64,000 nucleotides of DNA, from sequence record OQ845958.1; one strand, written 5' to 3'. A program made the position numbers and the translations under genes. Below the pieces are notes generated by a model, which ran no database searches, had not been told where the DNA came from, and saw only the letters and a list, made by a program, of their open reading frames with translations. Source of the stretch: Escherichia phage pEC-M719-6WT.2. This document shows positions 4,626 through 50,007 of this stretch, piece by piece; the stretch's first letter is position 1, and each line of letters begins with the position of its first letter.

Positions 4626-4716
4626 TTTACTATCTTGAACCTTGGGCTTGGTTAACAATGGCTATAGGGCCTGTTTTAATTGGTTTATTCTTTTCATGGT
4701 TAGCGAGGAAACTGTA

Positions 4717-4932
4717 ATGTTGTATGACCCAAGTGGTAATTTTGAAAATGGTGTGATTGTTCTGGAGCCTGAGCATCCAATTGGTGACGTATACCGCCCA
4801 GTTGAAGTGTGCGAATGTAATTTTGTTGCAGGTAATACTGGTGGGATTTCCATTGAGCAAGATGATGATGTTATTTACCTGGATGCAAGCCAAGTAGAAG
4901 CGCTTTATAGTATTTTAAAACATAACCGTTGA
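4717..4932 (+). CDS. hypothetical protein
   Basis: 71 aa; ATG preceded by GAGGAA; track ORF 4642 appears to begin at a non-ATG codon. Confidence 0.4.
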   Translation: MLYDPSGNFENGVIVLEPEHPIGDVYRPVEVCECNFVAGNTGGISIEQDDDVIYLDASQVEALYSILKHNR

Positions 4933-4942
4933 GGAACAGAAA

Positions 4943-5503
4943 ATGATTATTGAAACAACTGAATTGTTTGGCGAACTGACTGCTGAAGTGGTTAATAACG
5001 CAATCGAGCTTTGTCAAGAAGACGATAAAATCGTACTGACTATCCAAGATATTAAACCACTTTATAATTTAATGGTTTTGGATAGAGCTGACTATCTCAA
5101 TGGACGTAATAGTGCTCCTGTCGATATTAACGATGAGCTATACGCTTATATCTATAAAAATGAAAATGGGTTTAATCTGGAAAATGGTATAGAATGCCTG
5201 AGCATTAGCGATTCTGATAAATTCTTTGATTGTATTTTCAAACTCTTCCAGGAAGAATGTAAACCGGAAGTTGAATGGAAAGTTCCGGGACAAGATGCAC
5301 TGATTCGCTCTAGTGAAACGTTTGAAGGCGATGAAGAGGAACTAGATTATAATACTGAATTAACTGTGCATCAACATAACGGCCGTGACCTGTTATCTAT
5401 TGTCCAAAGACATGACGGCGAAAGTGAAGTGGTATTTACTAAGGACGAGCTAAAAGTTTTAGTCTCTTATCTGAACTCTGTTATCCCAACTATGAACTCT
5501 TAA
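4943..5503 (+). CDS. acidic hypothetical protein
   Basis: 186 aa, strongly acidic; SD upstream. Confidence 0.5.
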   Translation: MIIETTELFGELTAEVVNNAIELCQEDDKIVLTIQDIKPLYNLMVLDRADYLNGRNSAPVDINDELYAYIYKNENGFNLENGIECLSISDSDKFFDCIFKLFQEECKPEVEWKVPGQDALIRSSETFEGDEEELDYNTELTVHQHNGRDLLSIVQRHDGESEVVFTKDELKVLVSYLNSVIPTMNS

Positions 5504-11175: not shown

Positions 11176-11205
11176 GTTTACTTCCAAGGATGGAGGGGGT
11201 ATAAT
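11176..11205 (+). promoter_or_regulatory. sigma70-like promoter (GTTTAC, 18 nt, TATAAT)
   Basis: upstream of ATG 11233 with SD GAGGAG. Confidence 0.4.
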
Positions 11206-12861: not shown

Positions 12862-13090
12862 AGAATATCTTGAGACTGCTGATAAGGCGGTCCGTGAATT
12901 AACTCTGGCCTATTATAAAGAACACGGTAAACTTCCGGATAGTTATTCAGTATTGAAATCTGCTTTAACTCGTTCATATAATAATATGCGTTCAGAAGTT
13001 TATGGTATTATGGTCAAACATAAAGAACAAACCGGTCAATACCCCGATTATACTGAGACCTTCAAACAAGTATTAGGAATTAAGGAATAA
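12848..13090 (+). CDS. hypothetical protein
   Basis: 80 aa. Confidence 0.4.
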
Positions 13091-13091
13091 T

Positions 13092-13355
13092 ATGTTTAAA
13101 GTATATGGTTATGATTCATCTATTCATCGCTGTGTATTCTGCGATAATGCAAAACGTTTTTTGGATGTTAAAAAACAACCTTACGAGTTCATCAACGTTA
13201 TGCCAGAAAAAGGTGTGTTTGATGATGAGAAGATTGCCCAACTCCTGGCTGCACTTGGTCGCGAATCTCAAATTGGTTTGACCATGCCGCAAGTATTTGC
13301 TCCTGACGGAAGTCATATTGGCGGATTCACTGAACTGCGAGAATATTTTAAATGA
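13092..13355 (+). CDS. nrdC: glutaredoxin (NrdC-type thioredoxin)
   Basis: 87 aa (same as T4 NrdC); CVFC active site near N-terminus; glutaredoxin fold. Confidence 0.85.
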   Translation: MFKVYGYDSSIHRCVFCDNAKRFLDVKKQPYEFINVMPEKGVFDDEKIAQLLAALGRESQIGLTMPQVFAPDGSHIGGFTELREYFK

Positions 13356-13519
13356 TTGAATTATTGTTGGGTATTTTGTATCTTATCATCGGTATTGGTT
13401 ATGCTAAGACCCTAGCTAAAATAGATGATTTCGGTGCGGGTGACTTTTGTTGGTGGCTGACGTCTATGATTTGTTGGCCTTTATTTCTGGTTGGTGCTTC
13501 ATTCTGGAACTTTAAATGA
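13352..13519 (+). CDS. small membrane protein (55 aa)
   Basis: hand-translated; two hydrophobic segments; ATGA overlaps at both ends. Confidence 0.3.
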   Translation: MIELLLGILYLIIGIGYAKTLAKIDDFGAGDFCWWLTSMICWPLFLVGASFWNFK

Positions 13520-13692
13520 CCGAATTTGATATGGCCTATAAAACCTGCGCAAGAGAGTTTGATACTCCTGCGCCTAGTAAAGAAACCGTATTGGCAAATC
13601 TCCCGGATTGGTTAAAAGAAGAAGCCAACGAATGGGGTTGGACTGATACTTGTGTACGCGACCAGTTATTTGAATTTATGGTGGAATTATGA
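13516..13692 (+). CDS. small hypothetical protein (58 aa)
   Basis: hand-translated; start-stop overlaps with neighbours. Confidence 0.3.
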   Translation: MTEFDMAYKTCAREFDTPAPSKETVLANLPDWLKEEANEWGWTDTCVRDQLFEFMVEL

Positions 13693-13997
13693 GTGAATTA
13701 GACGGACAAACAATTTATCTGGGCGATGGCAACGAAGACGACCTGGAATATAAACTATACGAATACATGGTCGCCCTGGCAAAGGAAGAAGGTATTGACT
13801 TTGCTGTGGCTAACCCGTATGGTGAGAACACTGTTGTAATTGGTGGCACTGCTTATGAAGTCCAATGGCAATACGTTGGGCTTGAATCTATAGAATATGA
13901 AGAAGATAAGCATGGCGATTGGCATCCGGTGGGTCCCTGGTACTGGGACGACGGTGAGCCTGATTTTGAAGTATCAAGCTATTGGAGTGACCAATGA
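13689..13997 (+). CDS. highly acidic W/Y-rich protein
   Basis: 102 aa; about 25 percent D/E, almost no basic residues. Confidence 0.5.
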   Translation: MSELDGQTIYLGDGNEDDLEYKLYEYMVALAKEEGIDFAVANPYGENTVVIGGTAYEVQWQYVGLESIEYEEDKHGDWHPVGPWYWDDGEPDFEVSSYWSDQ

Positions 13998-14314
13998 CTA
14001 TTGAAAATGAATTAGATGTTGATGCTGTTTTAAGCGAAATCATTGAAGACCATGATGCGTTTACTGAATCATACGAGTTTGAATTTTCGGACTACCTGGT
14101 TCCGGTTGAATTAGGCGAATGGACACAATCTGGCAAATACCAATATCGCCAGGCAATTTATTTCAGCAAAAAACATAATGTACATGTGGCTGTAAACGAA
14201 ACTCGTACCGGCTCTTATCATACCGACTGGGACCATATGGTCCCGACTGTTGAACTGGTCAAGCTCCAAGAACGTGTCGTAACCCAAACTATCAGAGAAT
14301 GGATTACGCTATAA
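13994..14314 (+). CDS. acidic hypothetical protein
   Basis: 106 aa; acidic N-terminal half. Confidence 0.5.
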   Translation: MTIENELDVDAVLSEIIEDHDAFTESYEFEFSDYLVPVELGEWTQSGKYQYRQAIYFSKKHNVHVAVNETRTGSYHTDWDHMVPTVELVKLQERVVTQTIREWITL

Positions 14315-14431
14315 AACCATGGTACACCGCTCGATGGGAAACCGTCGAGCCAGAGGAACCTGTTTACAACGATTCCGAAATAGATTATAATGAACCTTCA
14401 AACAATGATTTAATCGATATGGAGTTTGGAT

Positions 14432-14605
14432 ATGAGTACCAAAATTGAAATTGGCCGTCATAAAGGCCGCCTGATTGAAAAATCACTTTATGAACTGTCG
14501 GATTCCCGTAAGTTACCCGATGAAGAATCTGCTTTAATTTTTGCCGCGGCGGATTATATCCATTGGCTTGAAGCTCAACTTCGCTTTGCTGATAAGGCCT
14601 TTTAA
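14432..14605 (+). CDS. small hypothetical protein (57 aa)
   Basis: hand-translated; stop overlaps next ATG (TAATG). Confidence 0.25.
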   Translation: MSTKIEIGRHKGRLIEKSLYELSDSRKLPDEESALIFAAADYIHWLEAQLRFADKAF

Positions 14606-14877
14606 TGTTTTTAGAAATTGTTAATATTCATGCGGCTGCTCAATCAGGTTTTATGAAAGAGCTTCAAGACGCAGGATTTAAAAATGGTGATGTTATCCAT
14701 GCGTTAAGACAACGTTTTGACCCTGACGTTGAATGTAATGTTTGGGACGTTGTTGAAACGGATGAATACCTTTTTGATACCATAGAAATTGAAGGGTCAT
14801 GGACCTGTATCACTGAGTATATGATAATTGATAATGGTAACGTTGAATGCCATTATCCTTGTTTTAGGATTGTTTAA
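14605..14877 (+). CDS. hypothetical protein
   Basis: 90 aa. Confidence 0.45.
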   Translation: MFLEIVNIHAAAQSGFMKELQDAGFKNGDVIHALRQRFDPDVECNVWDVVETDEYLFDTIEIEGSWTCITEYMIIDNGNVECHYPCFRIV

Positions 14878-15053
14878 TGAAAACTGCATTAGTCTATACC
14901 GAAAAGTTAAACGGTGACAAGGTCTGGAAACTTCTTATCAAAGGAAGCCCTACTGACCAGTTTATGGCCACCTGTGTGGGATTGTATACTCGTCCTACTA
15001 AAAAGATGATTCGTCAATTTAAACGGTTACACCGCGCGTTTTATAAGATTTAA
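14877..15053 (+). CDS. small basic protein (58 aa)
   Basis: hand-translated; TAATG overlap with upstream gene. Confidence 0.3.
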   Translation: MKTALVYTEKLNGDKVWKLLIKGSPTDQFMATCVGLYTRPTKKMIRQFKRLHRAFYKI

Positions 15054-15083
15054 TAAATACCCTTATCTAATAATGGTAAGGGT
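15051..15083 (+). promoter_or_regulatory. gene 49 control region: late-promoter-like TAATAAATA plus SD-sequestering hairpin
   Basis: ATAAATA at 15053-15059; perfect 7-bp stem ACCCTTA/TAAGGGT (15059-15065 and 15077-15083) whose 3-prime arm contains the SD AAGGG, 6 nt before ATG 15089. Confidence 0.5.
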
Positions 15084-23946: not shown

Positions 23947-24206
23947 AACTTTATGATTTTAATGAAGCGGGTCTTGAACATATCCGCGAATGTGATGTGG
24001 TCGACGACGATAATCAACCGAATACTATTAAGTATTGGTTTGAAGCTATCACTGACCGGGAAACCGGTCAACTTATCAAAGTCTATGTAGTCACCGATTG
24101 GGCCGTGGAATTTAGCTTTAATGTAATGGTAGATGATACTCCAGAAACATTAATTCATATGGCTGAATCATGCATCAAGGATGCTTATAATGATGAAAAT
24201 GTATAA
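23943..24206 (+). CDS. hypothetical protein
   Basis: 87 aa; GTG start overlapping gene 47 stop, SD GAGGTG. Confidence 0.4.
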   Translation: MKLYDFNEAGLEHIRECDVVDDDNQPNTIKYWFEAITDRETGQLIKVYVVTDWAVEFSFNVMVDDTPETLIHMAESCIKDAYNDENV

Positions 24207-24405
24207 ACATGATTTTCATATTGGCGATGGCTGGTTCGGTAATGTAGAATGGGACGTGGATGGTTCTTGGTATACCGGAACTATGTATGTCACTTCTGAA
24301 TATTCTGAAGGTGTTTCATGGGCCATGGAACTTGACGACGTGTTTGCTTCTTCCGAAGAAATGCTAGAATATGCTGAACAAACAATTCGTGAGAACAATA
24401 CATGA
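24190..24405 (+). CDS. acidic hypothetical protein
   Basis: 71 aa from ATG 24190 (alternative ATG at 24181). Confidence 0.4.
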   Translation: MMKMYKHDFHIGDGWFGNVEWDVDGSWYTGTMYVTSEYSEGVSWAMELDDVFASSEEMLEYAEQTIRENNT

Positions 24406-38468: not shown

Positions 38469-38660
38469 ATGACTGCAATGTGTACGGGCTCTAAGATTTC
38501 GGTCTTCCAGATTTTTGAAGAATATGAAATCGTGTCGCAAGACCAAGAAGCAATCCATGTTATCGCTGATGATGGTGTTACCTGGATTATTCCGTTGTAT
38601 CATGAAGACACCTATGAAGTGACTGATGCAAATGGCGATAAAGCTATCTTCGTTGTATAA
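38469..38660 (+). CDS. hypothetical protein
   Basis: 63 aa. Confidence 0.4.
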   Translation: MTAMCTGSKISVFQIFEEYEIVSQDQEAIHVIADDGVTWIIPLYHEDTYEVTDANGDKAIFVV

Positions 38661-49418: not shown

Positions 49419-49643
49419 ATGTTTAATGAAGATTGTGTGACCACTTCCCTGACTGCTGAAGAGTTTTGGGACACTGCCGAAAGTGATAAAGTGATTGTGA
49501 AGAAAAACATCAATGAATTTCTTTGCACCACTGATATCATTTATGTGTATGCAGACAAAGACGCAGAACTACCTAGCTATGCGCTGTTCCGCGAAGAATC
49601 AGAAGATGGTACAGATTTTTGGAAGGAGATTTATAATGTCTAA
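49419..49643 (+). CDS. acidic hypothetical protein
   Basis: 74 aa. Confidence 0.4.
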   Translation: MFNEDCVTTSLTAEEFWDTAESDKVIVKKNINEFLCTTDIIYVYADKDAELPSYALFREESEDGTDFWKEIYNV

Positions 49644-50007
49644 ATTTGAAACTGATAAGTGGTATTATTTTAAAGATAATGTTGCTGAAAGCAGATTCCG
49701 TTTGTTATGCACAGATAATGATAATATAGCCAATGCTATAATCAATGGCGAGGGATTTAGACCAGTCAGAATTGAAGATGGTGATGTGTATAAAATGGAA
49801 TTATCAACTGGTGAATTTGTGAGCCTATTCATAAAGGAAGACGAATTCCGTTTCTTTGAAGAAGAAAAAGATGACGATACTGAAGATGAATGCGAAGACG
49901 CAGCTCCATCTGAGCCAAGCGAATTCCCTTTGACTAAAATCACCATCTCTAATAACTCCGAAGCCTGGACCGTTTACCAGATGTTGAAAGCACACTTTAA
50001 GGAATAA
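49636..50007 (+). CDS. acidic hypothetical protein
   Basis: 123 aa from ATG 49636 (SD GGAGAT); D/E-rich C-terminal half. Confidence 0.4.
   Translation: MSKFETDKWYYFKDNVAESRFRLLCTDNDNIANAIINGEGFRPVRIEDGDVYKMELSTGEFVSLFIKEDEFRFFEEEKDDDTEDECEDAAPSEPSEFPLTKITISNNSEAWTVYQMLKAHFKE

Follow-up and report, generated by a model that had tools for sequence, protein, structure and literature searches.

As has been reported for phage T4 (PMC9697503 supplement), the hypothetical genes 49.3 and 49.2 fall in the class with early RNA and middle protein, and both of their products were detected in the proteome. The 49.3 product, Y04L, has been purified, and a nuclear magnetic resonance (NMR) assignment paper (PubMed 31707562) describes a well-folded monomer by size-exclusion chromatography and NMR, with an unpublished structure characterised there as a novel fold. 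The surrounding interval, from nrdC to pin, is emerging as a T-even site for inhibitors of host proteins: PinA, encoded by a neighbouring gene of the same early transcription unit and unrelated in sequence to 49.3 and 49.2, inhibits the host Lon protease, and the T6 protein named 'Gp49.2' abolishes the P2 OLD defence, an effect not shown by T6 'Gp49.3', Gp49.1, NrdC or NrdC.1 (Chihara et al. 2026, PMC13096335). Two overlapping open reading frames (ORFs), at 13689-13997 and 13994-14314 of a 64,000-nucleotide stretch of Escherichia phage pEC-M719-6WT.2 (record OQ845958.1; the whole stretch is called the window below), are here assigned as orthologues of T4 49.3 and 49.2, respectively. For each, the role inferred here, at a probability of about 0.5, is stoichiometric binding or inhibition of a host protein, and any target is inferred with it. 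About 130 T4 genes are still without function, and the finding, which concerns the composition of hypothetical genes already known from T4, is an ordinary one, a modest lead and not a discovery.

The ORF at 13689-13997 is 70% identical to T4 49.3 (UniProt P07070) over all 102 residues, matches phrog_4203 (E = 2.7e-45) and scores 155 bits against the 49.3 family profile, and all 13 of its first-round homologues carry the Pfam label PF26871 Phage_T4_Y04L. The ORF at 13994-14314 is 75% identical to T4 49.2 (Y04K, UniProt P07069) over all 106 residues and scores 161 bits against the 49.2 family profile, and its homologues are labelled PF26835 Phage_T4_Y04K. Both Pfam entries are name-only families, and the labels were taken from the homologues. 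Judged by these alignments, the two are orthologues of the T4 genes, and, on the sequence evidence, genuine genes under purifying selection, with ratios of nonsynonymous to synonymous substitution (dN/dS) against T4 of 0.24 for 49.3 and 0.145 for 49.2; the idea that they are spurious ORFs was rejected on dN/dS and conservation. Both exist exactly where a preliminary description of the window had placed them, and its designation of their products as early proteins is supported, since the T4 orthologues give early RNA. T4 gp49.3 occupies the same place, with 49.2 directly after it, and is likewise acidic and rich in aromatic residues, and T4 gp49.2 shares both position and motif with its counterpart in the window. 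In T4, 49.3 abuts nrdC, whereas in the window the two are separated by two extra cassettes (55 and 58 amino acids (aa)).

Nine residues are invariant in 49.3 (E20, G45, E46, W60, D92, F93, E94, V95 and W99), and the fold predicted by AlphaFold2 (AF2; predicted local distance difference test score (pLDDT) 63.5) is a helix at residues 16-33 followed by about seven beta strands. For 49.2, one helix and a six-stranded beta-meander are predicted, with the C-terminus unmodelled (AF2, pLDDT 72.3); the motif E-x-R-S/T-G-S-Y-H-x-D-W lies on the predicted core of the meander and the N-terminal helix is acidic. At residues 79-82 the window protein reads DHMV, where the 49.2 family consensus is YYAV. Profile searches returned no Protein Data Bank entry or relative of 49.3, and no relative of 49.2, below E = 0.4, the matches in the viral fold library BFVD were all uncharacterised phage proteins from the same family, and neither protein has a Pfam or NCBIfam domain that would provide an enzyme signature. 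In a set of 1.84 billion representative proteins, just 10 clusters match the 49.3 profile. Distant paralogy within the locus was rejected both for 49.3 and 49.2 (hhalign probability 0.2%) and for 49.1 and 49.3 (1.3%). A bacterial repeat protein of 1165 aa (P0031) has five repeats with VFGGTAYKIVWSYV, a sequence similar (E = 3.9e-4) to VIGGTAYEVQWQYV of the 49.3 hairpin; the likeness was rejected as homology and is probably a coincidence of short motifs.

The reading of 49.3 and 49.2 as inhibitors builds on the identity and conservation of the two genes, their expression as observed through T4, the conserved charge of 49.3 and the mosaic context of both. The two proteins are small, folded and unrelated to each other, and their genes belong to a translationally coupled run, transcribed together early in infection, that lies between nrdC and pin/49. 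In the mechanism proposed, each would bind and block, or decoy, one host protein, with a conditional, host-dependent benefit to the phage. The 49.3 protein, a monomer of alpha+beta fold, would act via a surface that is polyanionic and rich in aromatic residues, possibly as a nucleic-acid-like decoy, and 49.2 would act via a putative cystatin/NTF2-like cone that presents the conserved polar motif together with the acidic N-terminal helix. An inhibitor role is proposed by kind, because at least two cassettes of the array are proven stoichiometric inhibitors, PinA (of Lon) and the 56-aa T6 'Gp49.2' (of OLD). Should either protein act by blocking a nuclease or a DNA-binding protein of the host, new folds would be added to the anti-defence repertoire, and the poorly characterised anti-RecBCD activity of T4 could become easier to identify.

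Several points weigh against the inhibitor reading. The AF2 models are mediocre (pLDDT as above) and the conserved C-terminal segments of both proteins are poorly modelled, the position in an accessory array is circumstantial, and other small acidic T4 proteins (Cef and GoF) act on RNA metabolism. Further, the T4-type 49.2 and 49.3 do not seem to neutralise OLD, because T4 has both genes and lacks the 56-aa gene, yet appears restricted by P2 OLD and is among the phages rescued by the T6 protein (PMC13096335). Finally, a ligand-binding or metabolic role would account equally well for the polar motif of 49.2 and the recurrent nucleotide-metabolism genes around it.

In that last alternative, which is considered improbable, 49.2 would bind a small molecule or nucleotide in the pocket of a putative NTF2/cystatin-like cone, either as a signal 'sponge' or as an accessory factor of nucleotide metabolism. 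The polar cluster is conserved in the extended form E-x-R-S-G-S-Y-H-x-D-W-Y-Y, with R71 invariant, and the neighbours are nrdC and nrdD/G in T4-like phages and the genes for thymidine kinase, ligase, dNK and deoxyribosyltransferase on a contig from another phage group (described below); however, the AF2 model has a pLDDT of 72 and an unmodelled C-terminus, no ligand is predicted, and the annotation of the family as a ribonucleotide reductase is without domain support. This annotation ('ribonucleotide reductase / nucleotide reductase subunit C') stands in PHROG 2294 and in many GenBank records and calls for caution: Pfam and NCBIfam returned no ribonucleotide reductase or glutaredoxin/thioredoxin domain in 49.2, the sequence has no Cys pair, and the label probably arose from adjacency to nrdC.

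Among other members of the 49.2 family, those of ICP3-type Vibrio phages (L009 2399-2812) have an extra N-terminal CxxC...C...C segment, zinc-ribbon-like, and a Lys-rich linker, both of which are absent from the T4-like versions of 49.2. Another member, on a 102-kb contig from the ENA belonging to a different phage group (L015 5001-5303), lies directly upstream of a thymidine kinase gene, in a cluster with genes for DNA ligase, dNK, nucleoside deoxyribosyltransferase and an NMN (nicotinamide mononucleotide) transporter.

Charge, composition and DNA mimicry

The composition that the preliminary description had given for 49.3 was confirmed, with 11 Asp and 14 Glu (together 24.5%), three Lys, no Arg, five Trp and ten Tyr; the net charge is -22, compared with -16 for T4 49.3, and the isoelectric point (pI) is 4.05. 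The claim that 49.2 is similarly acidic was overstated, as this protein is only moderately so (Asp/Glu 18.9%, Lys/Arg 7.5%, net charge -12, pI 4.58). Against a background of 132 plus-strand ORFs from the window (mean net charge per residue -0.011, standard deviation 0.070), 49.3 is the second most acidic (-0.216 per residue, z = -2.9), after 49.1 (14299-14448; -0.224), and it has the lowest fraction of Lys and Arg and the second-highest fraction of Trp and Tyr. The 49.2 protein ranks 14th (-0.113 per residue, z = -1.45). Acidity alone is common in this genome, because 19% of the ORFs of 130 aa or less stand at -0.10 per residue or below. Four small ORFs that the preliminary description did not list (1845-2030, 4696-4932, 24181-24405 and 38469-38660) occupy ranks three to six for acidity, at -0.15 to -0.16 per residue and with 3-7% Lys and Arg.

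How far charge is maintained differs between the two families. In 22 homologues of 49.3 that span 28-100% identity, the charge stays between -0.13 and -0.22 per residue with about nine acidic columns fixed, and the retention of charge despite the drift of most acidic positions argues for selection on charge itself. The overall charge of the 49.2 family is not conserved, with members from Vibrio phages at -0.05 to +0.01 per residue, and the N-terminal acidic columns are kept.

These distributions bear on the possibility that acidity is incidental. In this case 49.3 and 49.2 would be early proteins of the ordinary T4 type, such as those that modulate transcription or RNA metabolism, and their low pI would stem from the overall composition of T4 early ORFs and not from mimicry. 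The commonness of acidic small ORFs agrees with this, as do the unremarkable charge rank of 49.2 and its nearly neutral relatives in Vibrio phages. So do the three other acidic ORFs that had been grouped with these two as candidate mimics: 4943-5503 (Asp/Glu 21.0%, net charge -25), 49419-49643 (24.3%, -12) and 49636-50007 (24.4%, -16) carry other annotations, as a y05I-like 'putative transcription factor', Cef and a GoF/ComC-alpha homologue, respectively, and that grouping does not hold. For 49.3, which is an outlier in the window and keeps its charge across deep divergence, incidental acidity fits poorly, and as an account of both genes it is unlikely.

The preliminary description had gone further and read the acidic proteins as candidate DNA mimics, and here its claim survives in part. 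Mimicry is plausible as a guess for 49.3 only, and a doubtful one: surface carboxylates would imitate the phosphate backbone of DNA or another nucleic acid and would competitively block a DNA-binding protein of the host (e.g., a restriction enzyme, a DNA-end nuclease or a nucleoid protein). What stands is the Ocr-like and conserved charge of 49.3 and its place in an array that bears inhibitors; what falls away is acidity as a discriminating property, and neither 49.3 nor 49.2 has any similarity to Ocr, Arn or gp5.9 by sequence (best blastp E = 0.14, against Ocr/Arn) or by fold. Known DNA mimics are small and strongly negative, a description that suits 49.3 and suits 49.2 marginally. The charge density of 49.3 is close to that of Ocr (-0.239 per residue) and well beyond that of Arn (-0.098), its scarcity of basic residues and abundance of aromatic ones are extreme for the window, and, from the data on T4 Y04L, it is a small, soluble and folded protein. 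Ocr is mainly helical, unlike 49.3, for which a mostly beta structure is predicted; since the known DNA mimics are diverse in fold and share no common one, mimicry by 49.3 is compatible with the lack of a fold match.

The case for mimicry is lowered by a small base rate, with DNA mimics making up 11 of 268 catalogued anti-defence proteins, and by the monomeric state of T4 Y04L compared with the dimers formed by Ocr, Gam and gp5.9, though monomeric DNA mimics exist. The nine invariant residues, which include W60, W99 and the DFEV motif, are more in keeping with one particular fold or interface than with a generic array of charges. Moreover, proteins from the same interval that are not mimics are also acidic, the T6 OLD inhibitor at -0.143 per residue and PinA at -0.081.

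The mosaic array between nrdC and pin

The nrdC-pin interval was compared among T4, T6, SP18, Jiaodavirus, Moonvirus, Mosigvirus, Winklervirus, Gelderlandvirus and phage MHG19, across which up to eight small cassettes are gained or lost. The cassettes comprise an approximately neutral protein of 60-71 aa, a 55-aa membrane protein, an acidic protein of 58-63 aa, 49.3, a protein of 50-61 aa of the OLD-inhibitor type, 49.2, 49.1 and a basic DUF7279 protein. The order 49.3, OLD-inhibitor homologue, 49.2 is found in Jiaodavirus, Moonvirus, Winklervirus and phage MHG19; the OLD-inhibitor cassette is missing in T4 and in the phage of the window, and T6 is missing both 49.3 and 49.2. Among phage records, 49.3 occurs in 298 and 49.2 in 590, against 674 that match the region. 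Among homologues from public assemblies (P0019-P0022, P0024 and P0027), 49.2 is frameshifted independently in several alleles, with divergence after residues 52-58, and an internally deleted allele and a frameshifted 49.3 allele also occur. Both genes decay readily, as these independent frameshifted and deleted alleles indicate, and, to judge from their distribution, both families are patchy and dispensable.

The 58-aa acidic ORF directly upstream of 49.3 (13516-13692) has a homologue in Mosigvirus p000v that is fused in frame to an OLD-inhibitor domain. The N-terminal part of this 118-aa protein (L007 2298-2654) matches 13516-13692 at E = 1.6e-13 and its C-terminal part matches T6 ORF081c at E = 2e-23, and the fusion hints at a functional link between the 58-aa ORF and the OLD inhibitor. 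In Salmonella phage S16, the homologues of 13516-13692 and of the OLD inhibitor are adjacent, overlapping genes.

The names used for the T6 proteins require caution, as the 'Gp49.2' and 'Gp49.3' of the 2026 study are unrelated to the proteins of the same names in T4. Between 49.1 and nrdC, T6 (MH550421) carries a 56-aa ORF (L003 8199-8369) and a 71-aa ORF (L003 8372-8587). The residues mutated in PMC13096335 (M13, T15 and W32) are those of the 56-aa protein; 49.2 of the window and of T4 has L13, E15 and S32 instead, and its blastp comparison with the 56-aa protein stays at E > 0.7. Neither T6 ORF has detectable homology to 49.2 or 49.3 of the window or of T4 (blastp E of 0.2 or worse), and tblastn found no homologue of the 56-aa or the 71-aa protein in the whole window. 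The T6 ORFs are unrelated to the T4-type proteins, and therefore the finding that 'Gp49.2' acts against OLD cannot be carried over, and nor can the finding that 'Gp49.3' does not; extension of the OLD-inhibitor result to 49.2 of the window was rejected on this ground. T6 'Gp49.2' does lie in the same interval as 49.2 and is also small and acidic, and it is described as RelB-antitoxin-like, with occlusion of the ATPase site, not DNA mimicry, as the proposed mechanism (PMC13096335). Given the collision of names, annotation transfer by name would be wrong.

The 49.2 family in the gp5.9 slot of T7-like phages

In T7, the gene for gp5.9, a DNA-mimic inhibitor of RecBCD that is also described as inhibiting MukBEF, lies between genes 5.7 and 6. 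Members of the Y04K family take exactly this place in two T7-like lineages: in Kayfunavirus ST15 the polymerase is followed by gp5.5, gp5.7 (77% identical to T7 5.7), the Y04K-family protein and the gp6 exonuclease (51% identical), and in Chatterjeevirus JSF30/ICP3 a gp5.7 homologue is followed by the Y04K-family protein and gp6. The ST15 and ICP3 proteins score 40 and 147 bits, respectively, against the 49.2 family profile, and no gp5.9 homologue was found in the genome of either JSF30 or ST15. Judged by gene order, this occupancy of the gp5.9 slot in two lineages is a new positional lead. The JSF30 gene at L009 2202-2399 is annotated as 'HNS binding protein' (which would be gp5.5), and its product is in fact 62% identical to T7 gp5.7.

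A 2026 preprint reports that the RecBCD inhibitors gp5.9 and Gam are sufficient to trigger OLD and that, in lambdoid phages, the trigger of OLD shares a locus with an inhibitor of it. In other T4-like phages, the OLD-inhibitor homologue sits between 49.3 and 49.2. Taken together, the gp5.9 slot, the OLD triggers of the preprint and the triad of 49.3, OLD inhibitor and 49.2 suggest inhibition of a DNA-end nuclease as a possible activity of 49.2. The 49.2 family would then be the functional analogue of gp5.9, directed at RecBCD or another such nuclease, with the adjacent OLD-inhibitor cassette of T4-like phages as an antidote to OLD, which acts as a guard set off by RecBCD inhibition, a proposal with which the description of the T4 RecBCD inhibitor as poorly characterised agrees. 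This possibility is rated as rather unlikely. The argument is positional only, the interval between 5.7 and 6 may be a hotspot for accessory genes, and 49.2 of the window sits in a T4-like context; one member of the family, on the 102-kb contig, adjoins thymidine kinase, ligase and dNK instead. The two proteins are both small and acidic, but 49.2 has no sequence or fold similarity to gp5.9, which is a 52-aa dimeric coiled coil, compared with the helix and six-stranded beta-meander predicted for 49.2. T4 DNA ends are protected by gp2, which also counts against the analogy. Further, T6 has neither 49.2 nor 49.3 and is still restricted by OLD, so that these two genes cannot be the sole OLD trigger.

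A fuller scheme, in which Y04K would be a new inhibitor of a DNA-end nuclease (e.g., RecBCD) common to T4-like and T7-like phages and standing in for gp5.9 in T7-like lineages without it, the triad would form an offence-plus-antidote module around the OLD guard and 49.3 would be a monomeric nucleic-acid mimic of new fold, is improbable as a whole.

Neighbouring features of the window

The 3.1 kb around 49.3 and 49.2 are 95-99% identical in DNA to the Gaprivervirus phages ECML-359, EAWsc9, SP18 and VR20 (T4-like Straboviridae), and by this similarity the source phage of the window is a T4-like Gaprivervirus. On the plus strand the order is nrdC.4, nrdC.2, nrdC.1, nrdC, the 55-aa hydrophobic ORF, the 58-aa acidic ORF, 49.3, 49.2, 49.1, the Pin fragment, the 90-aa ORF, the DUF7279 ORF, gene 49 and nrdD (coordinates in Table 1).

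Table 1. Features of the nrdC-49 region and of the three other acidic ORFs, in window coordinates.
Feature	Position	Strand	Remarks
y05I-like protein of T4, Pfam 'putative transcription factor'	4943..5503	+	PF24449 E = 1e-36; PF24448 E = 1e-19
Sigma-70-like promoter match	12953..12982	+	TTGAAA-18-TATAAT, 11/12 positions; nearest upstream; consensus match only
nrdC, glutaredoxin/thioredoxin	13092..13355	+	84% identity to T4 NrdC; left anchor of variable array
55-aa hydrophobic, membrane-like cassette	13352..13519	+	between nrdC and the acidic genes; homologue in Kosakonia phage Kc304
58-aa acidic ORF	13516..13692	+	directly upstream of 49.3 and translationally coupled to it; PHROG matches
49.3 orthologue (Y04L)	13689..13997	+	102 aa; 70% identity to T4 49.3
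49.2 orthologue (Y04K)	13994..14314	+	106 aa; 75% identity to T4 49.2
49.1 orthologue (T4 Y04J)	14299..14448	+	49 aa; invariant motif KPW..ARWETVEPE
PinA (Lon protease inhibitor) remnant	14426..14605	+	59 aa; right-hand neighbour of array
90-aa acidic ORF, phrog_17711	14605..14877	+	inside split pin region; net charge -12, pI 4.22
58-aa basic DUF7279 protein	14877..15053	+	Pfam PF23945, E = 3e-16
Terminator-like hairpin	15059..15083	+	end of transcription unit, before gene 49 (endonuclease VII)
Cef, modifier of suppressor tRNAs	49419..49643	+	PF24050 E = 1.9e-23; phrog_1354
GoF/ComC-alpha homologue, mRNA-metabolism modulator	49636..50007	+	tblastn matches under goF / mRNA metabolism modulator features

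Start and stop codon overlaps (ATGA) recur from 13516 onward, including that of the 49.2 start with the 49.3 stop, and no terminator-like hairpin was found in the run from 13516 before the one at 15059. The candidate promoter upstream of nrdC could drive an operon from nrdC to the 49.x genes; a second promoter-like consensus match lies at 11177-11205. The GoF/ComC-alpha homologue also matches phrog_622 and, weakly, phrog_13003 goF.

Relative to T4, PinA is reduced in the phage of the window to a C-terminal fragment, which matches only T4 Pin residues 102-146 (blastp) and positions 88-136 of the 136 in the Pfam profile PF10465 Inhibitor_I24 (E = 1.7e-6); in SP18 the same fragment is annotated as 'inhibitor of host Lon protease'. 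The C-terminus of the DUF7279 protein resembles the tail of T4 Pin (residues 144-160), with a blastp match to residues 146-159. From these alignments, the Lon-inhibitor gene pin appears broken up in the window into the fragment, an unrelated acidic ORF and then the DUF7279 ORF that bears the Pin tail.

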